From NCBI GenBank assembly GCA_964235945.1, contig CAXSDV010000003.1, forward strand, positions 32,601 through 96,600: DNA of 64,000 nt, given 5' to 3'. The notes beneath the pieces were generated by a model. That model was not told the DNA's origin. It saw only the letters and a list, made by a program, of their open reading frames with translations, and searched no databases. Each line of letters starts with the position of its first letter. The first letter of the stretch is position 1. Source of the DNA: an uncultured Caulobacteraceae bacterium (GTDB lineage Bacteria; Pseudomonadota; Alphaproteobacteria; Caulobacterales; Caulobacteraceae). Position numbers and translations under genes: made by a program. Positions 9,341-45,789 of this stretch are shown here, one piece after another.

Positions 9341-10336
9341 GTGACCGGACCGCGCGTCACGGTGGTGGTGGTCGCCTACCAGTCGGCCGGCTACCTCCAG
9401 CCCTGCGTCGACTCGCTGGCGGCCCAAAGCTTCACCGATTTCGAGGCGGTGGTGGTGGACAACGCCTCCACCGACGGCTCGGTGGACGCCCTGCGCCTGC
9501 CGGACGCGCGCTTCCGGGTGGACCGGGCGGGCGCCAACCTGGGCTTCGCCGCCGCCAACAACCGTGCGGTGCGCGCGAGCGCCGCGCCCCACGTCGCCCT
9601 CCTGAACCCGGACGCCGTGGCCGACCCCGGCTGGCTGGCGGCGCTGGTGGCGGCGGCGCAGGCCGATCCGCGCCGGGCGAGCATAGGCTCCCTGCAGATG
9701 CGGCTGGAGGACGCGGGGCGCCTCGACGGGGTGGGCGACGTTTGGCACGCGGCGGGCCTGGCCTGGCGCGCGGGGGAGGGCTGGACCGCCGACCGCGCCC
9801 CCGGCGACGGCCCCATCCTCGGCCCCTGCGGCGCCGCCGCCCTCTACGACCGCCGCGCCTTCCTGGAGGCCGGCGGCTTCGAGGAGCGCTTCTTCTGCTA
9901 TTGCGAGGACGTGGACCTGGCGCTGCGCCTGCGCCTGCTCGGCCACGCCTCCTGGCGAGCCTCGGCGGCGGTGGTGCGCCACGCGGGCTCGGCCATATCG
10001 GGGCGGGCGAGCGACTTCACCCTGTTCCACGGTCACAGGAACCGGGTGTGGACCTTCCTGCGCAACACGCCGGGAGGCTGGTTCTGGGCGCTCCTGCCCT
10101 TCCACCTCGCCTTCAACCTGCTCTACCTGGGGCTGGCGCTGCGGCGCGGGTTCCATCGGCCCGTGTGGAAGGCCTATACGGCGGCGTGGGCGGGCCGGGC
10201 CCCCATGCGGGAGGCGGCGCGCCGTCTTCCCCGGGGGAGCTTCCGGCGCCTCCTGCCCGTGGTGGTGTGGGCGCCCTGGGCGCCCTGGTCCCGGCTGCTC
10301 AAGCCCGGACCCTTGGTGGAGTCGGACGCGCGATGA
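9341..10336 (+). CDS. Glycosyltransferase family 2 (rhamnosyltransferase-like)
   Basis: Part of ORF 9020..10336, starting at GTG 9341. [62 protein letters not shown]...[13 protein letters not shown] (GT2 DxD/ED motifs), followed by a C-terminal TM segment. The stop overlaps the next ATG (ATGA). Confidence 0.8.
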
Positions 10337-11208
10337 AGGGTCTGATCCTGGCCGGCGGCTCCGGCACGCGGCTCGCGCCCGTGACGCACGCGCTCTGCAA
10401 GCAGCTCCTGCCCATCTACGACACGCCCATGATCTACCACCCCGTGTGCACGCTGATGCGCGCGGGGGTGCGCGAGATCCTGATCATCTCCACCCCGCGC
10501 GACACCCCGCTGCTGCGCGACCTCTTGGGCGACGGCTCCGCCTGGGGCGTGCGCTTCGAGTACGTGGTGCAGGACCACCCGCGAGGGCTGGCCGACGCCT
10601 TCATCCTGGGCGAGCGCTTCATCGCGGGCGGGCCCTCCGCCTTGATCCTGGGCGACAACCTGTTCCACGGGGCGGGGCTGTCCGACCTGCTGCGCCAAGC
10701 CGCCGGCCACGACGCGGGCGCGCGCGTGTTCGCCTACCAGGTGCGCGACCCCGAGCGGTACGGCGTGGTGGAGTTCGACGCGCAGGGGCGCGCCCTGTCC
10801 ATCGAGGAGAAGCCCACGCGCCCCCGCTCCGAATGGGCGGTGACCGGGCTCTACTTCTACGACGCGGACGTGGTGGAGATCGCCAAGGCGGTGCGCCCCT
10901 CGCCCCGGGGCGAGATCGAGATCACCGACATCAACCAGGCCTACCTCGACCGCGGAGACCTCCGCGTGGAGCGCCTGGGCCGCGGCTACGCCTGGCTGGA
11001 CACCGGCACCCACGACTCGCTGCTGGAGGCGGGCGACTTCATCAAGGCCATCGAGCACCGCCAGGGGCTGAAGGTCGCCTGCCCCGAGGAGATCGCCCTG
11101 CACCAGGGCTGGATCGACCCGGACGCGGTGGCCGCGCTGGGTCGCGCCATGGGCGGGGCGGACTACGGCCGCTACCTGCTGGAGGCCGCCGCCGAGGCGG
11201 GGGCTTGA
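10333..11208 (+). CDS. rfbA: Glucose-1-phosphate thymidylyltransferase (canonical copy)
   Basis: [37 protein letters not shown]..., [21 protein letters not shown]. All RmlA signature elements are intact. ATG 10333 overlaps the GT2 stop. Confidence 0.92.
10834..10902 (+). repeat. 69-nt tract identical to 7715-7783 (inside rfbA paralog 2)
   Basis: Exact identity with the copy in rfbA paralog 1, read directly from the sequence. Confidence 0.9.
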
Positions 11209-11273
11209 TCCAGCTACTTGGATGATGATGCTGGGGTGACCGGGCGTGCGGGCGCGCCCGGCGAGAGGATCGT

Positions 11274-12281
<1,008 letters not shown>

Positions 12282-22526: not shown

Positions 22527-22883
22527 TTGAGAACCGTCCTGACCGCCGCCCTCGCCGCGGCCTGCGTGTGCGCCGCCGCGGCGCCCGCCTCCGCCTCGCC
22601 CTACGCGATCGACAAGCTGCACGACCGCGAGAACCGCATCCAGGACGCGGTGGACCAGCGCCGCGCGTCCACCCGGGTGGGCGACCAGCTGATCCGGGTC
22701 AAGAAGCTGGAGGAGCGGATGCGCGCGCGCCACGGGTCCAACCTGACGCGCGCCGATTTCGAGGTCCTGAACGCCAGGCTCGACGCGCTCGAAGGCGTGC
22801 GCCACCGCCACCGCCGCGGCGCCGACCACGGCCGCAGCGGGCCCCACCAGATCACGACCACCACGACCACCGTCAGGCGTTGA
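22527..22883 (+). CDS. Small secreted hypothetical protein
   Basis: 118 aa. TTG start preceded by AGGGGGA. Signal peptide MRTVLTAALAAACVCAAAAPASA, a charged helical middle, and a His/Arg- and Thr-rich tail (ITTTTTTVRR). Confidence 0.55.
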   Translation: MRTVLTAALAAACVCAAAAPASASPYAIDKLHDRENRIQDAVDQRRASTRVGDQLIRVKKLEERMRARHGSNLTRADFEVLNARLDALEGVRHRHRRGADHGRSGPHQITTTTTTVRR

Positions 22884-24621
22884 CCTCCAGGGCGGCCGCC
22901 AGCGCGCCGGCGTAGCGGGCGCGGGCGCGCAGGAGCCGCGCGTGCTCGGCCGGCCAGCCCGCGTGGGCGTCCGCCGCCATGCTCCACAGGCCGAGCTGGA
23001 AGGCGAGGTAGGCGAGCGTGTGGAAGGCGAGCCGTTCGCCGTCCACCACGAGGTCCCGCGCGAGGCGGGCGGCGGCCGCGGCGTCCAGGGCGAGTTCCAC
23101 CTGGGCGCCCGCCACGTCCCAGGCCACGTCCTGGGCGCCGATCAGGTCGTGGGCGCGGGCGTGGTCCAGCGCGTCGGTCTTGAGCAGGCCGCCGTCGGGC
23201 GGGAGCATCCACTCGTGCAGGTGCAGCCGGTTGTCGGTCCACACGCGCCGGCCGCGCGCGGCGAGGGCGGCCAGGCGCGGCTCCCACGCGTCCAGCGGTC
23301 GCGCGGCCTCTTCGCCCAACGCTTCCGCGGCGTTGGCGCGCGCCATGGCGAGGAGGGTCCGCAGGTCCGCCCCGTCGCCTTCCCCGGCGGGGAAAGCCCG
23401 CGCGCGGAAGGCGAGGTGGGCGCCCACCGCGGCGGCGGCGCGTCCGCGGTCGGCGGGCGTGTCCGCCAACGGGCGCGCGCCCTCCAGCCAAGGCTCCACC
23501 AGCCAGCCGCCGCGCAGCGCCAGCGGCTCGGGCGAGAGGCCGGCGGCGTGCAGCGCCCGGGCGCGGGCGAGCTTGGCCGCGCCCTCGCGGCCGCCCAGCC
23601 CCGCCCACTTGAGGCGGAACGCGCCGCGCGCCGTCTCCAGGCGGAACTTGAGCCGCTCGGCGCCGGCGTCCACGGCGGGCCAGTGCGCCTCCTCCGCGTA
23701 GAGGCGCGCGCGCCAGGCCCCGCCGGACAGGTCCTCCAGCGGGCCGAGGGCGGGGCCGACCACGTCCTCCAGTCGCCGCGCCAGCCCCCGAACCGCGTCG
23801 TGCGGGTCGAGCTCGGGACGGTCGCCGCCCGCGACGCGGCGGGTCGCCGCCCAGCGCGCGCGGCGCACCTCCCCCGCCTGCGGGCCGAGGTCGCCGGCGT
23901 GGCCGGGCAGGGCCACCAGCCGCGCGCGGTCCACGCCGGCCGCCTCCAGCGCGTCCAGCGCCGCGGCGAGGGAGGAGCCCGACAGGCCCGGTCCCTCGTC
24001 GGCCACCGCCCAGGTGCGCCCGGCCTCGCGCCGCCACTCGGCCAGGAGCGGCGGGGCGACGGCGAGCCGGCGGTCGAACGGGTGGCCGACCGGGCGCACG
24101 GTGACGGGAACGGGGGCGCCCACCGCCGCCGCCGCCATGGCCGCTAGCCCCGCGCCGATGGAGCGCAGGCCCAGCACCCGGCTTTGCGCGTCCAGCCCCG
24201 CGGCGCGCGCGGCCTCCGCGTGGCCCTCGGGCTGGAGCGCATAGAAGGCGTAACCCTCCGCCAGCCGCACCTCGACCTCCGGCGGGAAGGGCAGGGCGGC
24301 CAGCGCTTCGGCCGAGGCGGGCGCGCACGGCGCGTCGCCCTCGAAGCCCGCGCGCCAGGAGGCGTCCACACGCCGGGCGAGATCGGTCAGCCACGTCATC
24401 GCGGCGGCGTGCAGAGGGGTGCGCGCGTCTTCGCCGGTATCCGCGAACTCGGCGTCGACCAGGCCCTGGACGAGGGCGGCGGCGTCCACGAAGGCGTCCG
24501 TCAGCCGGGCGTGGCGCGCCGCTCCGGCGGGCGCGGCCGCCAGCCCCGCCAGTTCGGCGCGGATGCGGCGGAGTTCGGCGGCGGGGTCCAGCCGGGAGAC
24601 GGCGTCGCCGTAGACGATCAC
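22873..24621 (-). CDS. Hypothetical 582-aa two-domain protein (C-terminal half weakly kinase/APH-like); last gene of the ino1 operon
   Basis: Part of ORF 22873..24819, starting at GTG 24621 (GTGA overlap with the upstream phosphatase stop). The C-terminal half has FRLKWAG...HLHEWMLPPDGGLLKTDALDH..DLIGAQDVAWD, reminiscent of aminoglycoside/choline-kinase-type folds. The mid-region AVADEGPGLSGSS is weakly PRPP-loop-like. Function unknown. Confidence 0.6.
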   Translation of the reverse strand: MIVYGDAVSRLDPAAELRRIRAELAGLAAAPAGAARHARLTDAFVDAAALVQGLVDAEFADTGEDARTPLHAAAMTWLTDLARRVDASWRAGFEGDAPCAPASAEALAALPFPPEVEVRLAEGYAFYALQPEGHAEAARAAGLDAQSRVLGLRSIGAGLAAMAAAAVGAPVPVTVRPVGHPFDRRLAVAPPLLAEWRREAGRTWAVADEGPGLSGSSLAAALDALEAAGVDRARLVALPGHAGDLGPQAGEVRRARWAATRRVAGGDRPELDPHDAVRGLARRLEDVVGPALGPLEDLSGGAWRARLYAEEAHWPAVDAGAERLKFRLETARGAFRLKWAGLGGREGAAKLARARALHAAGLSPEPLALRGGWLVEPWLEGARPLADTPADRGRAAAAVGAHLAFRARAFPAGEGDGADLRTLLAMARANAAEALGEEAARPLDAWEPRLAALAARGRRVWTDNRLHLHEWMLPPDGGLLKTDALDHARAHDLIGAQDVAWDVAGAQVELALDAAAAARLARDLVVDGERLAFHTLAYLAFQLGLWSMAADAHAGWPAEHARLLRARARYAGALAAALEVNA

Positions 24622-25136
24622 GGGGCGGCGGCGTCCTCGCGCAGGTGGCGGTAGGCGATCGCCGCGAAGGCGTCGAAGTCCGGCGCGGCGATCCCCCGCG
24701 CCTCCAGCCACGCCGCCCAGGCCCCGTACTGGGCGGGCGAGGGTGAGACCTGCCAGCGGGCGGCCTTGGCGCGCTCCAGCGCGTCCAGGGGGGTCGCCCC
24801 CGCGTCCACCAGCGCGCACAGCGCCAGCAGGGCCGAGCGGCCCACCCCTTCGCGGCAGTGGACCACCGCGCGGCGGCCGCGCACGAACGCCACGCCCCGG
24901 TCGAGGTCGGCGCCCGTGACGGCGTGGTGGTCGGGGGTGGGCAGGTGCAGGAAGGCGATCCCCGCCGCCGCCAGCGCCCCCGGGTCGTCGCGGGCCTCCG
25001 CGCGCAGGTCCACGGCCGCGGTCACGCCCTGCGCGCCCAGGGCGGGCCAGGCCGAGGTCGGCAGCTCGCCCGCCACGGCGAGGTCCGGCGTGATCCAGTC
25101 GAGGTTCAACGCCCCGGCCGGCGCGGCCCCGGTCAC
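24618..25136 (-). CDS. Dual-specificity / PTP-like phosphatase (HCX5R)
   Basis: Part of ORF 24618..25808, starting at GTG 25136 (GTGA overlap). 172 aa with the active-site loop VVHCREGVGRSAL. Confidence 0.8.
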   Translation of the reverse strand: MTGAAPAGALNLDWITPDLAVAGELPTSAWPALGAQGVTAAVDLRAEARDDPGALAAAGIAFLHLPTPDHHAVTGADLDRGVAFVRGRRAVVHCREGVGRSALLALCALVDAGATPLDALERAKAARWQVSPSPAQYGAWAAWLEARGIAAPDFDAFAAIAYRHLREDAAAP

Positions 25137-26053
25137 GCCGGGGCGGACCGGGGCGCGGCGGCGGCGGCGGGCGCCGGGGCGTAGCGCTCCACCATCTCCG
25201 TGCAGAAGTCGGCGAAGGCGGACGGGTCGCGCGGGGCGCTGGTGTGGTGCGGCTCGATCCCCAGCTCCTCCGGGGTGAAGCAGAAGGTCGTGGTGACGTC
25301 GAAGCCGGCCAGCGCCTCCATCTGCCGGTCGAACCAGTCGAGCGCGCCCGGGCGCAGGCGGTCGGCCCAGGAGAGGCCCGTGCGCAGGTAGGTGACGCCC
25401 AGCTCCTTCATCCAGCGCACCGCGTCGTCCAGCCGGTGGTCCTCGTAGTGGAACCATTGGCACAGCCCCAGGCCGTCGGGGCCGGCGTGGGGCCGGAAGG
25501 CCTCCAGCGCCTTCTTGGGCCGGCCGGTCTCGTCCAAGAGGCCCATGGCGAAATGGCGGTAGTAGGAGGAGCCCTCCGCCTCCTTGTGGCGGGTGGTCGC
25601 CTCCCAGGCCTGGGGCAGGTCGTAGAGCGAGTACCAGTGGATGCGCGGCGCCCGGCCGACCAGAAGTTCGGCGCTGCGCGTGACGCCCCAGGCGGCCACC
25701 TCCTCCGCCCCGAAGGAGGAGACGCCCACCTCGCTGACCCACAGGGGCCGGTCGCCGATCACCGGGCGGATCTCGTCGAGCTTGCTCGGCCAGTCGTGGA
25801 TCGACCACAGGTTCCAGTCGAGCGGGAAGCCGTGCACGGCCACCACGTCGATCTCGTCCATCGCGCCGTAGCCGGTCAGTCGGTTGATGAAGGAGGGGTC
25901 GATGGGGCTCATCCCGCCCAGCACCCGGGGCAGGCGCGGGTTGGCGGCCTTGATCGCGCGGCCGCCCGCCTTCACGAGGTCGCCGAACTTGGACCAGTCC
26001 GGGTCGACGCCGGGGTCCCAGTGGCTCTTGTTGTTGGGCTCGTTCCAGATCAT
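25133..26053 (-). CDS. Clan GH-A TIM-barrel glycosidase-like protein, apparently circularly permuted
   Basis: Part of ORF 25133..26623, starting at ATG 26053. Begins MIWNEPNN (acid/base NEP motif), then VAVHGFP, LWVSEVG (nucleophile-type E) and HWYSLYD. Only after these come the segments that normally lie at the N-terminus: MKELGVTYLRTGLSWADRL...DWFDRQM...FDVTTTFCF...FADFCTEMVERY. Confidence 0.65.
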   Translation of the reverse strand: MIWNEPNNKSHWDPGVDPDWSKFGDLVKAGGRAIKAANPRLPRVLGGMSPIDPSFINRLTGYGAMDEIDVVAVHGFPLDWNLWSIHDWPSKLDEIRPVIGDRPLWVSEVGVSSFGAEEVAAWGVTRSAELLVGRAPRIHWYSLYDLPQAWEATTRHKEAEGSSYYRHFAMGLLDETGRPKKALEAFRPHAGPDGLGLCQWFHYEDHRLDDAVRWMKELGVTYLRTGLSWADRLRPGALDWFDRQMEALAGFDVTTTFCFTPEELGIEPHHTSAPRDPSAFADFCTEMVERYAPAPAAAAAPRSAPA

Positions 26054-26064
26054 CGCCGCTTCGA

Positions 26065-26679
26065 TCAAGGGCGGGGCTCCTGTGGGATGGCCGGGGCCAG
26101 GGCGTTGACGCGCAGCACCTTGGCCCCCCAGTCGCCGGTGACGACGGTGGTGACGGAGGCGGGCGAGATCTCGAGGCGGTGGTGCAGGTCCAGGCCGATT
26201 CCCAGCCACCAGCACACCAGCGCCTTGACGATGTCCGAGTGGCACACGGCCACCACCGTCCCGTCCGGGTGGGCGGCCGCCATCTCCTGCACGGCGCGGG
26301 CGGCGCGCACCTGCGCCTCGCCCAGGCTCTCGCCGTTCGGCGGGCGGTTGAGCGAGCGGCGCTCGTTCCAGGCGGTCCAGCGCGGGTCGGCTTGCAGTTC
26401 GTCGAAGGTCATCCCCGTCCAGTCGCCGAAGTCGACCTCGACCAGGCCGGGCGTCTCCACCAGCGGGGCGCCCAGCGCCTCGGCCAGGGGGGCGGCGGTC
26501 TCCCGCGCGCGCTGGAGCGGGCTCGTGTGGACGGCGTCGGCGCCCTCGGGGATCAGCGTGGCGACCCGGCGCGCCTGGGCGTGGCCCTCGTCGGACAGGC
26601 CCACCCCCTCCATGCGCCCGCACAGCACCCGGTTCAGCCGGCCGTGCGTCCCGTGGCGCACGAGGTGCAGGAGGGTCAC
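26065..26679 (-). CDS. Histidine phosphatase family protein (phosphoglycerate-mutase-like)
   Basis: Part of ORF 26065..26862, starting at GTG 26679 (GTGA overlap with the ino1 stop). [11 protein letters not shown] (RHG motif), [19 protein letters not shown]. Confidence 0.85.
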
Positions 26680-27788
26680 GCCGGCCCCGCGATGAAGGCC
26701 TCCACCTTGGCGCGCGCCTCCTCGTCGGTGAACTGCACGGCCGGGCTCTTCATGAACCAGGCGGAGGGGCCCTCCAGCGCGCCGCCCACCCCGCGGTCGA
26801 GCGCCAGCTTGGCGCAGCGCACCGCGTCGATCACCACGCCGGCGCTGTTGGGGCTGTCCCACACCTCCAGCTTGAGCTCGATGTTGAGCGGCACGTCGCC
26901 GAAGGTCGTGCCCTCCAGGCGGATGAAGGCGAACTTCCGGTCGGTCAGCCAGGGCACGAAGTCGCTGGGGCCGACGTGGACGTCGCCGGCGGGCAGGGGC
27001 GTCTCCAACTGGCTGGTGACGGCCTGGGTCTTGCTGATCTTTTTGGACTCGAGCCGCTCGCGCTCCAGCATGTTCTGGAAGTCGGCGTTGCCGCCCACGT
27101 TGAGCTGGTAGGTGCGGTCCAGCCGCACGCCGCGCTCGCGGAACAGGTTGGCCAGCACCCGGTGGACGATGGTGGCGCCCACCTGGCTCTTGATGTCGTC
27201 GCCCACGATGGGCAGGCCCGCCGCTTCGAAGCGCGCGCGCCAGGCGGGGTCCGACGCGATGAACACCGGCACGCAGTTGACGAAGCCGCAGCCCGCCGCC
27301 AGCGCCGCCTCCGCGTAGTGCTCCGTGGCCGCCTGGCTGCCCACGGGCAGGTAGGAGATCACCACGTCCGCTCCCGCCTCGCGCAGGGCGGCGGCCACGT
27401 CGCAGGGCGCTTCGGCCGCTTCGGGCACCTCGTCCTTCAGGTACTTGCCGATGCCGTCCAGCGTCGGCCCCCGCCGCACGACCACGCCGCGGGGCTCGGG
27501 CCGGGCGAACACGTGGGTGTTGTTGGGGCCGGCGAAGATCGCCTCCGACACGTCGCGCCCCACCTTGGCGGCCGACACGTCAAAGGCGGCGGCCACCTCG
27601 ATGTCCTCGATGCGGTAGCCGCCCAGGTCCGGGTGCATGAGCCCCGGGACGGGCGCGTTGGAGCGCACGCCCGAATAGTGCGCCAGCCCCTGCACGAAGG
27701 AGGAGGCGCAGTTGCCCACGCCCACGATCCCCACGCGCAGCTTGCGGCGCGACGGTTCGGTCGAGGGGGGGTGCAGCGATCCGTCCAT
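26676..27788 (-). CDS. ino1: myo-Inositol-1-phosphate synthase
   Basis: 370 aa. [112 protein letters not shown]. Near-collinear with mycobacterial/archaeal-type Ino1 as recalled. Confidence 0.93.
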
Positions 27789-27870: not shown

Positions 27871-27896
27871 GGAACGGGTTATGACAAGGCCACGTT
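27871..27896 (+). promoter_or_regulatory. Consensus EcfG-type general-stress promoter (GGAAC-N17-CGTT)
   Basis: GGAAC gggttatgacaaggcca CGTT is a perfect match to the alphaproteobacterial EcfG consensus. It lies 34 nt upstream of the ATG at 27930 in the ino1-divergent intergenic region. Confidence 0.7.
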
Positions 27897-27929: not shown

Positions 27930-28199
27930 ATGTCCGCCGCCGAAACCATCATCGACCACGACCAGATCAAGAAGTGGGCCGAGTCGCGCGGCGGCCGCCC
28001 CTCCAAGGTGCAGACCAAGGACGCCCACGACGGTTCGGGCATCCTGCGGTTCGATTTCCAGGAGAAGGACGAGAACCTAGAGGAGATCTCCTGGGAGGAG
28101 TTCTTCCAGATCTTCGACGACAACAAGCTCGCCTTCCTCGAGCAGGACAAGACCGCCAGCGGCGCCACCAGCCGCTTCTTCAAGTTCGTGAAAAGGTAG
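27930..28199 (+). CDS. Small acidic conserved hypothetical protein (stress-regulon type)
   Basis: 89 aa: MSAAETIIDHDQIKKWAESRGGRPSKV...ILRFDFQEKDENLEEISWEEFFQIFDDNKLAFLEQD. I recall similar small proteins widely in Alpha/Betaproteobacteria, often mis-annotated. Visibly lower GC than the flanks. EcfG motif upstream, and SD GGAGAAG before the ATG. Confidence 0.7.
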   Translation: MSAAETIIDHDQIKKWAESRGGRPSKVQTKDAHDGSGILRFDFQEKDENLEEISWEEFFQIFDDNKLAFLEQDKTASGATSRFFKFVKR

Positions 28200-28221: not shown

Positions 28222-29331
28222 GTGGCTGAGACCGTCCTGATCACCGGCGGGGCCGGCTTCATCGGCCGTTACGTGGCCGACGAGCTTCTCGCCCGGGGCT
28301 GCCACGTGCGGGTGCTCGACTCGCTGATCGAGCAGGTCCACGGCGGCCGGGGCCGGCCGCCGGAACTGTCGAAGGAGGTAGAGCTCGTCGTGGCCGACGT
28401 GCGCGACGAAACGGAGGTGCTCAAGGCGCTCCACGGCGTGGACAGCGTGGTCCACCTCGCCGCCGAGGTGGGGGTGGGCCAGAGCATGTACGCGGTGGAC
28501 CGCTACACCTCCGTCAACGACCACGGCACCGCGGTGCTGTTCCAGCAGCTGATCGCCAAGCCCGTGCGGCGGGTGGTGACGGCCTCCTCCATGTCGATCT
28601 ACGGCGAGGGGCTGTACCGCGACGCGGACGGCGCCTTGCACGAAGAGGTGGTGCGTGGGGGCCGCAACGCCGACGGGAGCTGGGACCCGCAGGACGCCCG
28701 GGGCCGCCCGCTCACGCCGGCGCCTACGCCCGAGTGGAAGCGTCCGACGCTGGCCAGCATCTACGCCCTGGGCAAGTACGTGCAGGAGCGCATGACGCTG
28801 ACGCTCTGCCCGCCCTACGGCATGGAGTGCTCGGCCCTGCGCCTGTGGAACGCCTACGGGCCGGGCCAAGCGCTCTCCAACCCCTACACGGGCGTGCTGG
28901 CGATCTTCTCCTCGCGCCTCGCCAACGGCCAGGCCCCGCTCGTGTTCGAGGACGGGATGCAGCAGCGCGACTTCGTGCACGTGCGCGACGTGGCGCGCGC
29001 CTTCGCCGCCGCGCTCTACGAACCCCGGGCGGACGGCCAGGTGTTCAACATCGGCTCGGGCGACGTATTCACGGTCAACCAGGTGGCCGCCGCGGTGGCC
29101 AAGGCCATGGGCGTGGACGCCGAGCCGCAGGTCGCCGGCAAGGCGCGCACCGGCGACATCCGCCACTGCATCCCCGACATCTCCAAGGCGCGCGGCGAGC
29201 TGGGCTTCGCGCCGAGGGAGGACTTCATGGCGGGCCTCGCCGAGCTCGCCGAATGGGTCGGCCGCCAGGAGGCGGTGGACAACGTGGCCCACGCCGCCAA
29301 GGAGCTGGAGACGCGGGGGCTGGTCGTATGA
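28222..29331 (+). CDS. NAD-dependent epimerase/dehydratase (extended SDR) with a large internal insertion
   Basis: 369 aa, GTG start. [27 protein letters not shown] (YxxxK), and a ~40-aa insertion (DADGALHEEVVRGGRNADGSWDPQDARGRPLTPAPTP). Confidence 0.8.
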   Translation: MAETVLITGGAGFIGRYVADELLARGCHVRVLDSLIEQVHGGRGRPPELSKEVELVVADVRDETEVLKALHGVDSVVHLAAEVGVGQSMYAVDRYTSVNDHGTAVLFQQLIAKPVRRVVTASSMSIYGEGLYRDADGALHEEVVRGGRNADGSWDPQDARGRPLTPAPTPEWKRPTLASIYALGKYVQERMTLTLCPPYGMECSALRLWNAYGPGQALSNPYTGVLAIFSSRLANGQAPLVFEDGMQQRDFVHVRDVARAFAAALYEPRADGQVFNIGSGDVFTVNQVAAAVAKAMGVDAEPQVAGKARTGDIRHCIPDISKARGELGFAPREDFMAGLAELAEWVGRQEAVDNVAHAAKELETRGLVV

Positions 29332-30410
29332 GCGACGGCGAGGCCCCCGTCCTCGTCACGGGCGGGGCGGGCTTCATCGGCTGCAACATCGCCGACCGCC
29401 TGCTGCGCGACGGCCACCGGGTGCGCGTCTACGACAAGCTGGCGCGGGCGGGGGTGGAGGCCAACCTCGACTGGCTGCGCGGCCGCCACGGCGACCGGGT
29501 GGAGGCGGTGGTCGCCGACGTGCGCGACCGCGCCGCCCTGGCCGCCGCCGCCCAGGGCGTGTCCGCCGTGTTCCACATGGCCGCCCAGGTGGCGGTCACC
29601 ACCAGCCTCGTCGACCCGGTGGAGGACTTCGAGGTCAACCTGGGCGCGACCCTGGCCCTCTTGGAGGCGCTGCGCGCCCAGGGCGGGCGCATTCCGCTGG
29701 TGTTCGCCTCCACCAACAAGGTCTACGGCGACCTGGCGGACGTGGAGTTCCACCTGGAGGGCGAGCGTTACGTTCCGGCCGACGCGGCGCTCGCGGCCCA
29801 CGGGGTGGGCGAGGGCCGGCCGCTCGACTTCCACACGCCCTACGGCTGCAGCAAGGGCGCGGCCGACCAGTACGTGCTCGACTACGCCCGCAGCTACGAC
29901 CTGCCCACCTGCGTCATGCGCATGTCCTGCGTGTACGGCCCGCGCCAGATGGGCACGGAGGACCAGGGCTGGGTGGCGCACTTCCTGATCCGCGCGCTGG
30001 AGGGCGAGCCGATCACCCTCTACGGCGACGGCCGCCAGGTGCGCGACATCCTGCAGGTGGGCGACGTGGTGGAGGCCTACCTGGCCGCCTGGCGCGACAT
30101 CGAGGCGGTGCGCGGCCGCGCCTTCAACCTGGGCGGCGGGCCGGACAACGCGGTCAGCCTGCGCGAGCTCCTGGCCTACATCGGCGAGCTCACCGGCCGC
30201 CCCGTCGACGTGGCCTACGCCGACTGGCGCCGGGGCGACCAGCGCTACTTCGTCGCCGACATGCGCGCCGCGCAGTCCGCCCTGCGCCTCGCCCCCCGCA
30301 CCGACTGGCGCGACGGCGTGGCGGGCCTGGCCGACTGGCTGGCCGAGCACCGCGGCCTGCGCCGCAACGCCCCCCTTTCCGCCGCGCCCGCCCTCGCCGG
30401 CGCGGGCTGA
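29328..30410 (+). CDS. NAD-dependent sugar epimerase (CDP-paratose 2-epimerase-like extended SDR)
   Basis: Part of ORF 28734..30410, starting at ATG 29328 (ATGA overlap). [63 protein letters not shown]. Confidence 0.8.
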   Translation: MSDGEAPVLVTGGAGFIGCNIADRLLRDGHRVRVYDKLARAGVEANLDWLRGRHGDRVEAVVADVRDRAALAAAAQGVSAVFHMAAQVAVTTSLVDPVEDFEVNLGATLALLEALRAQGGRIPLVFASTNKVYGDLADVEFHLEGERYVPADAALAAHGVGEGRPLDFHTPYGCSKGAADQYVLDYARSYDLPTCVMRMSCVYGPRQMGTEDQGWVAHFLIRALEGEPITLYGDGRQVRDILQVGDVVEAYLAAWRDIEAVRGRAFNLGGGPDNAVSLRELLAYIGELTGRPVDVAYADWRRGDQRYFVADMRAAQSALRLAPRTDWRDGVAGLADWLAEHRGLRRNAPLSAAPALAGAG

Positions 30411-45763: not shown

Positions 45764-45789
45764 AACGTGAGTACGTGCGTCGTTGTTCC
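45764..45789 (-). promoter_or_regulatory. Consensus EcfG-type general-stress promoter (GGAAC-N17-CGTT) upstream of the CgeB4-MT-PIG-L-GT4-GNAT operon
   Basis: The reverse strand reads GGAAC aacgacgcacgtactca CGTT, a perfect consensus, in the 83-nt gap 24-33 nt upstream of the candidate start codons. Confidence 0.65.

Follow-up and report, generated by a model that had tools for sequence, protein, structure and literature searches.

The DNA analysed in this work is a 64-kb stretch (the window) of contig CAXSDV010000003.1 from an uncultured Caulobacteraceae bacterium. The gene under study lies on its minus strand and encodes a (beta/alpha)8 barrel of the glycoside hydrolase clan GH-A type. The barrel is almost certainly circularly permuted, with its strands following one another along the chain in the order b4-b5-b6-b7-b8-b1-b2-b3. 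Two references are used throughout. The first is PslG of Pseudomonas aeruginosa (GH39, clan GH-A; PDB 4ZN2, 5BX9), which is the best solved relative. The second is a sister family of proteins that exhibit the normal strand order. The gene and the parts of its product are as follows, where pLDDT denotes the predicted local distance difference test score of the structure model.

25133..26068, minus strand: coding sequence of the permuted GH-A-like barrel, 311 amino acids (aa) and the TGA stop, counted from the revised start at TTG 26068
25484..26068, minus strand: beta4-beta8 block, residues 1-195, aligning to PslG 132-321 and to sister-family columns 118-311 (hhalign E 9.9e-52)
25169..25483, minus strand: beta1-beta3 plus alpha3 block, residues 196-300, aligning to PslG 25-131 and to sister-family columns 15-117 (hhalign E 2.6e-36, 39% identity)
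25472..25513, minus strand: junction from the ancestral C-terminus (alpha8) to the ancestral N-terminus (beta1), residues 186-199, with a linker of about 5 residues (GPDGL)
26039..26041, minus strand: codon GAG of Glu10 (WNEPNN), the predicted acid/base on the first chain strand, aligning to PslG chain residue 139, which is E165
25730..25732, minus strand: codon GAG of Glu113 (WVSEVG), the predicted nucleophile, aligning to PslG chain residue 250, which is E276
about 26036..26022, 25822..25811 and 25597..25556, minus strand: invariant loops of low pLDDT, residues 11-15, 83-86 and 158-171 (NNKSHW, PLDWNLW and ATTRHxEAEGSSYYRHF)

The translation from ATG 26053 (25133..26053, minus strand) comprises 306 aa. 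It contains all the motifs on which the original prediction of a permuted barrel was built, namely MIWNEPNN, VAVHGFP, LWVSEVG, HWYSLYD and GLLDETGRPKKALEAF, followed by MKELGVTYLRTGLSWADRL, DWFDRQM, FDVTTTFCF and FADFCTEMVERYAP. That prediction had placed the start at this ATG, 11 nt after the upstream stop. The arithmetic is correct, but the choice of start is not retained. From sequence comparison, the true start is most likely the TTG at 26068..26066, five codons 5' of the ATG, since close homologues all share the N-terminal motif and a start codon at the equivalent position. All 75 related loci that yielded the motif have this start codon (ATG in 57, GTG in 15 and TTG in 3). In the window, the four letters TTGA at 26068..26065 contain both this TTG and the TGA of the upstream histidine-phosphatase gene. 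The third-position G+C content (GC3) of the barrel gene is 0.98 and the G+C content of the window is 75%. A longer in-frame open reading frame (ORF) at 25133..26623 was considered as the true gene and rejected, as it runs across the histidine-phosphatase gene in a different frame and no homologue has its extension. This extension is an Arg/Pro/Gly-rich out-of-frame sequence, which is noise of high-GC DNA. The statement that no N-terminal strands are missing upstream holds. An exact look-up of the window protein returned no record.

The family profile, built from 77 members, was compared with the solved structures in the PDB. It matches PslG (E 1.4e-8) in two swapped pieces, where profile positions 3-186 correspond to PslG 132-321 and profile positions 200-296 correspond to PslG 25-131. 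The two pieces abut exactly at PslG 131/132. The window protein alone exhibits the same swapped pattern against PslG, with weaker scores. The cut site lies in the alpha3-beta4 loop, which is on the barrel face opposite to the active site. At this site PslG reads ...SQRYPSV|AAWQVWNEPN and the window chain ends with ...VERYAPA. The window chain starts, one residue past the Met, with strand beta4 and its NEP acid/base motif. The chain order is thus not that of a normal GH-A enzyme, with the acid/base on the first chain strand and the nucleophile on the fourth, although topologically these are still barrel strands 4 and 7.

The normal-order sister family was identified by an exhaustive profile search over 1.8 billion representatives, which gave 3427 matches. 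The best 150 of these matches were re-scored, and 21 normal-order proteins were identified among them. A search seeded with one of them (P0165) gave 111 further normal-order proteins, and 132 have been sampled in all. In each member, the first ~110 residues correspond to profile positions ~194-296, the next ~190 residues correspond to positions ~3-190, and both blocks are significant. In P0165, residues 8-110 correspond to profile positions 195-295 (independent E-value, iE, 1e-22) and residues 113-297 correspond to positions 3-189 (iE 5e-44). The sister family itself is collinear with PslG (15-265 with 27-304, E 4.9e-12), and its members start 3-8 residues before the equivalent of beta1.

The two families were also compared profile to profile with hhalign, at the E-values listed above. 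Positions 3-197 of the permuted family align to columns 118-311 of the normal-order family with a probability of 100% and 35% identity, and positions 199-299 align to columns 15-117 with a probability of 99.9%. The blocks abut at sister-family column 117/118. Swapped and abutting blocks that span the whole domain, which define a natural circular permutant, were thus found both against the sister family and against PslG. The sequence comparisons put this swapped block order far beyond chance. In the divergent permuted members (41-47% identity), the match to the profile begins at position 1-2, and the termini are those of the rest of the family.

Both families share many characteristics. Members of the sister family (for example P0165, P0271 and P0372) are 35-39% identical to the permuted proteins over the barrel after the blocks are swapped back, and 43 near-invariant columns, which include all catalytic motifs, are common to both. 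The partner genes are also similar, with epiA upstream, epiB fused and glycosyltransferases downstream. The sister family differs in having the normal strand order, in being often fused to epiB, and in lacking the ATTRHxEAEGSSYYRHF loop. By their source names, its members belong to Cyanobacteria, Acidobacteria, Bacteroidota, Myxococcota, Planctomycetota, and other phyla.

A barrel in the normal order with fortuitous motif assignments could appeal to Pfam, which gives a single weak match on residues 2-79 of the window protein. That match maps to positions 154-229 of the GH39 profile, in the middle of the domain, and the swapped two-block matches (E 1e-22 to 1e-52) are incompatible with collinearity. 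The probability of a normal-order barrel is negligible.

The AlphaFold2 (AF2) model that was obtained with the family alignment is a single closed barrel of eight beta/alpha units, with a pLDDT of 83 and a predicted template modelling score (pTM) of 0.84. The strands of the model are at residues 2-7, 48-53, 75-80, 109-114, 143-146, 200-203, 227-233, and 257-263. By the alignments, these strands are b4, b5, b6, b7, b8, b1, b2, and b3, respectively. The helix alpha8 is at residues 186-194, and the final helix at residues 282-296 is alpha3. The model thus exhibits the (beta/alpha)8 barrel that the fold of clan GH-A would require. The protein with its blocks swapped back was also modelled as a single sequence, and this model reached a pLDDT of 38 and a pTM of 0.33.

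The AF2 model represents a monomer alone, and the alpha8-beta1 junction is very short (about 5 residues). Both facts would suit an obligate domain-swapped oligomer, in which each barrel would be assembled from the beta4-8 block of one chain and the beta1-3 block of a second chain. The monomer model is confident by its pTM, however, the ends of normal TIM barrels are adjacent so that a short link suffices, and the overhangs at the two ends of the normal-order relatives are just as short. A domain swap is thus regarded as very improbable, and the single-chain permuted barrel is preferred.

The word-indexed protein search gave at least 8000 proteins that match the window protein. The 120 matches listed are 294-345 aa long with 71-91% identity, and they are often named 'beta-xylosidase'. 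The scan of one genome per species identified the permuted form in at least 586 species genomes. The permuted family is found at 68-91% identity with the same termini across the database proteins and the species genomes. The host species belong mostly to Alphaproteobacteria (Caulobacteraceae, Roseomonas, Microvirga, Methylobacterium, Bradyrhizobium, Azospirillum, Sphingomonas, Devosia, and Paracoccus), and a few belong to Gammaproteobacteria (Rhodanobacteraceae and Steroidobacter). The closest genome match among those listed is an uncultured Caulobacteraceae metagenome-assembled genome (87%).

This distribution bears on the possibility of a rearranged or truncated pseudogene, or of an assembly artefact, with an accidental order of motifs. 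Nothing beyond the unusual order itself points to such an origin, together with the tendency of high-GC DNA to yield long spurious ORFs. The same architecture and termini recur throughout those genomes and proteins, the GC3 is high, and the gene belongs to a conserved operon with 4-nt start/stop overlaps. A pseudogene or artefact has practically no probability left. The swapped significant matches refute a normal-order barrel and, together with the database proteins, the species genomes and the family-wide conserved termini, they refute a pseudogene as well.

Four independent lines of evidence concur on the permutation, namely the PslG profile match, the normal-order sister family, the profile-profile comparison, and the structure prediction. 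The findings are consistent with the original prediction, which had proposed the order beta4-8 then beta1-3 and had expected two non-collinear profile matches, canonical and permuted versions among the relatives, and a barrel upon structure prediction. The two non-collinear matches were obtained against PslG/GH39, both versions exist and align block for block, and the AF2 model is one barrel of eight units in the proposed order. The loss of function by truncation or rearrangement that the prediction had named as one possible refutation is contradicted by the number of proteins and genomes with the same termini.

Several observations weigh against this interpretation. The Pfam GH39 (PF01229) score of the window protein is below the threshold (14.5 versus 26 bits) and covers residues 2-79 only. 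Sub-threshold matches of both GH39 and GH53 fall on these residues and map to the middle of the profiles. The beta1-3 block alone is marginal against PslG (9.3 bits), and its significance rests on the sister family. Foldseek, which is a sequential aligner, gave only generic triosephosphate isomerase (TIM) barrels from the PDB, with TM scores of 0.25-0.45 and root-mean-square deviations of 7-14 Å. The matches of the permuted model include KDO8P synthase, DERA, designed barrels, and some GH5 enzymes. Such low scores are expected for a permuted barrel with a sequential aligner, and they are not positive evidence. Three invariant loops were modelled with pLDDT below 50, which weakens the predicted active-site geometry. 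The neighbour-joining tree of both forms is midpoint-rooted, without an outgroup. No duplication intermediate (B-A-B or A-B-A) was identified in 385 sequences, which were drawn from the best 150 of the 3427 matches and from others.

The poorly modelled parts are limited to the loops NNKSHW, PLDWNLW, and ATTRHxEAEGSSYYRHF. The last of these is invariant in the permuted family and absent from the normal-order sister family. The three segments rank with the most invariant stretches of the permuted family and are probably family-specific active-site loops. With these points taken together, it is highly probable that the window protein is a complete single-domain (beta/alpha)8 GH-A barrel, with PslG (GH39) as its nearest solved relative, and a natural circular permutation whose ancestral chain was opened in the alpha3-beta4 loop.

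The joint neighbour-joining tree was constructed from the de-permuted and the normal-order sequences, and the two forms lie on opposite sides of its midpoint root. All outgroups (PslG/GH39, GH53, and GH1) have the normal order, which indicates that the permuted form is derived, probably once. The permutation would probably have arisen a single time from a normal-order barrel of the kind that is fused to the epiB epimerase in many other phyla.

The characteristics of active sites of clan GH-A (the '4/7 superfamily') are present in the window protein. At the end of beta4, the N-E-P motif with its acid/base Glu is represented by WNEPNN with E10, and at the end of beta7 the nucleophile Glu is represented by E113 of WVSEVG. 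Both E10 and E113 are invariant in the permuted and the normal-order families. The corresponding PslG residues were converted from chain numbering to E165 and E276 with an offset of 26 residues, and the E165Q/E276Q variant of PslG is inactive (PMC4928890). Across the swapped-back permuted and the normal-order sequences, identity reaches at least 90% in 43 columns, among them the Arg of LRTGxSWAD (beta2), WNEPNN (beta4), HGFP (beta6), the nucleophile Glu (beta7), and WY (beta8). These shared columns span both blocks, which indicates that the active site is built from both blocks as in any GH-A barrel.

The barrel would fold like its normal-order relatives and would have the activity of a retaining beta-glycosidase or transglycosidase, in which the acid/base would be Glu10 of the first strand and the nucleophile would be Glu113. 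The active site would be completed by residues of the C-terminal block, such as Arg229 of LRTGLSWAD, which is invariant and lies on beta2. The protein is probably a functional retaining glycosidase-type enzyme, at a clearly lower confidence than that placed in the permutation. Its lack of a signal peptide suggests a cytoplasmic site of action.

PslG is similar to the window protein in the NEP acid/base, in the nucleophile Glu, and in being a glycosidase encoded inside a polysaccharide/glycoconjugate biosynthesis operon. PslG differs in its beta1-beta8 order, in its C-terminal beta-sandwich domain, and in its membrane anchor or signal, whereas the window protein is a bare permuted barrel of 311 aa without a signal and below the Pfam GH39 threshold. 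The NCBIfam scan of the window protein gave no model matches. Since the permuted protein fails both the GH39 profile threshold and the defining normal chain order, it does not belong under GH39, and nothing supports the label 'beta-xylosidase' that databases give it.

The barrel gene belongs to a run of minus-strand genes that faces a divergent operon on the plus strand. The neighbouring genes are as follows, where SDR denotes short-chain dehydrogenase/reductase.

26676..27788, minus strand: inositol-3-phosphate synthase (MIPS), first gene of the operon (Pfam PF01658, E 5e-36)
26065..26679, minus strand: histidine phosphatase (His_Phos_1), 204 aa, upstream gene, whose GTG start overlaps the MIPS stop (GTGA)
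24618..25136, minus strand: Cys-based dual-specificity-type phosphatase, 172 aa, downstream gene, whose GTG start overlaps the barrel TGA (GTGA)
22873..24621, minus strand: 582-aa protein, whose GTG start overlaps the stop of the dual-specificity-type phosphatase (GTGA)
27930..28199, plus strand: small ORF of 89 aa at the head of the epimerase/glycosyltransferase operon
28222..29331, plus strand: epiA, SDR epimerase/dehydratase, divergent operon
29328..30410, plus strand: epiB, SDR epimerase/dehydratase, divergent operon, the orthologue of the domain that is fused to normal-order barrels

The five minus-strand genes are chained by 4-nt overlaps (GTGA 26679..26676, TTGA 26068..26065, GTGA 25136..25133, and GTGA 24621..24618), which indicate translational coupling. 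The MIPS protein scores 527 bits against TIGR03450, under the 638-bit cut-off of this mycothiol-type equivalog. The divergent operon also encodes a zinc-type dehydrogenase, a GFO/IDH/MocA oxidoreductase, a GT4 glycosyltransferase, and at least one CgeB-like (Glyco_trans_1_2) glycosyltransferase. The NCBIfam scan of the cluster proteins gave no system-level family.

The same gene neighbourhood is found in relatives. In 56 related loci with full flanks, the genes no farther than 6 kb from the barrel gene include MIPS 45 times, the histidine phosphatase 43 times, and epiA and epiB 40 times each. The 582-aa protein adjoins the barrel gene in only 8 of the 56 loci. It has no Pfam, NCBIfam or PDB sequence match, and by eye its C-terminal part contains motifs reminiscent of a kinase-like fold (HLHEWM...KTDALDH...DVAWD). 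The 89-aa ORF has no family match. Its product is hydrophilic and Lys/Glu/Asp-rich, which is unusual for this genome, and the ORF is conserved at the head of the epimerase operon in locus L001 and in 9 of the 56 loci, immediately behind the EcfG-type motif described below. In some genomes (Microvirga, loci L002/L003, 7298..10004), the histidine phosphatase is separated from the permuted barrel gene by inserted genes for a glycosyltransferase, an NTP-transferase, and a methyltransferase, and PrkA/DUF444/SpoVR stress genes are nearby.

A C-terminal SDR epimerase/dehydratase fusion is frequent in the normal-order relatives (P0240, P0247, P0256, P0261, P0268, P0270, P0283, and many more). The epiB of the window shares 53-59% identity with the C-terminal domains of P0261 and P0268. 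In one fusion locus (L006, fusion gene 10001..11641), the fusion gene is preceded by a gene with 53% identity to epiA and followed by glycosyltransferases. No MIPS was identified in the three normal-order gene contexts inspected. Many stand-alone barrels are mislabelled 'CDP-paratose 2-epimerase' because their relatives are fused to the SDR domain. The fusion of normal-order relatives to an epiB orthologue, together with the shared neighbours, suggests that the barrel works with epiB.

From this context, the barrel may act with the SDR epimerases and glycosyltransferases on a sugar conjugate that is possibly inositol-linked and that the conserved cluster would produce. It would be a cytoplasmic glycosidase or transglycosidase of a glycoconjugate pathway, with a part in trimming, recycling or transferring a sugar. 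In Alphaproteobacteria this pathway would be tied to inositol-phosphate synthesis. The assignment of the barrel to a glycoconjugate pathway is tentative, and we consider it doubtful.

The same context raises the possibility that the folded permuted barrel is not a hydrolase in vivo and acts instead as a transglycosidase, or as a sugar-processing partner of epiB, in a biosynthetic pathway. The cluster is biosynthetic (MIPS, phosphatases, epimerases, and three glycosyltransferases), the normal-order relatives are physically fused to an epiB orthologue, the location would be cytoplasmic without a signal peptide, and 68-91% identity across orders is unusual for a degradative enzyme. However, both catalytic glutamates of retaining GH-A hydrolases are invariant, and PslG is a true hydrolase though it is encoded in a biosynthetic operon (PMC4928890, PMC9075953). 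A role other than hydrolysis is possible, with the odds against it. It refines the interpretation of a functional permuted glycosidase-type barrel rather than contradicting it.

A candidate motif for stress-dependent transcription lies between the two operons.

27871..27896, plus strand: EcfG-type motif GGAAC-N17-CGTT, 34 nt upstream of the small ORF 27930..28199

The sequence GGAAC-N16-17-CGTT is the EcfG-type promoter consensus of the alphaproteobacterial general stress response. The 64-kb window contains 2 exact matches versus 0.37 expected. The second and only other match is at 45764..45789 on the minus strand, and no exact match was identified upstream of MIPS in the window. In 80 related loci, 46 motifs were observed versus 12.9 in shuffles (3.6-fold). 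Of these copies, 18 precede MIPS by 25-111 nt and another nine precede epiA, each time on the correct strand. The loci with the motif include L016, L018, L020, L021, L024-L028, L043, L049, L053, L055, L060, L075, L078, and others. These promoter-like sequences suggest that the cluster as a whole may be part of the general stress regulon of Alphaproteobacteria.

The pair of families described here can be compared to GH70 and GH13 (clan GH-H), which are the textbook natural permutation of a glycosidase (beta/alpha)8 barrel with both forms extant (for example PMC4919382 and PMC9732880). The GH70 enzymes differ from the window protein in belonging to the alpha-retaining clan GH-H, in having another cut site, and in being large, secreted, and multidomain with a U-shaped chain path, whereas the window barrel is a minimal single-domain cytoplasmic barrel of clan GH-A. 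Transaldolase and the class I aldolases are also related by a TIM-barrel permutation, where the register of the whole barrel is shifted and the active-site geometry is kept. Permutations of this type have been recognised from structure alone, with negligible sequence identity. The present pair differs from them in that the two forms are still 35-39% identical.

No permuted barrel of clan GH-A, GH39 or GH5 was found in searches that covered about 8 million open-access papers and bioRxiv. For the gene cluster and its EcfG-regulon link, the open-access literature gave nothing relevant, the matches being GH70/GH13, MalS, and unrelated work. It is somewhat likely that the permuted GH-A barrel is genuinely undescribed. 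The fold, the clan, and the catalytic motifs are known, and what would be new is the rearranged chain in an unclassified and very widespread family.

By a narrow balance, we favour a broader reading of these findings. This would be the first recognised natural permutation in clan GH-A, which is the largest GH clan, and it would define an unclassified family outside Pfam and NCBIfam in hundreds of alphaproteobacterial species. Its sister family would be fused to an SDR epimerase, and both families would belong to an uncharacterised glycoconjugate pathway that is coupled in Alphaproteobacteria to inositol-phosphate synthesis and is probably stress-induced.

Natural permutations of TIM barrels are rare, and they are usually visible only by structure or inside large multidomain enzymes such as GH70/GH13. 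A minimal barrel of 300 residues that exists in both orders, with 35-39% identity and identical catalytic motifs, is a clean natural pair. Such a pair serves the questions of how chain order relates to folding, stability, and catalysis in the commonest enzyme fold, and it could guide the design of permutants in GH-A enzymes. Profile methods that assume collinearity detect just one half of the domain, so that thousands of these proteins carry the unsupported name 'beta-xylosidase' or have no family. The barrel gene also marks a widespread and conserved cluster of MIPS, phosphatases, epimerases, and glycosyltransferases, which is probably stress-regulated in plant-associated and soil Alphaproteobacteria.

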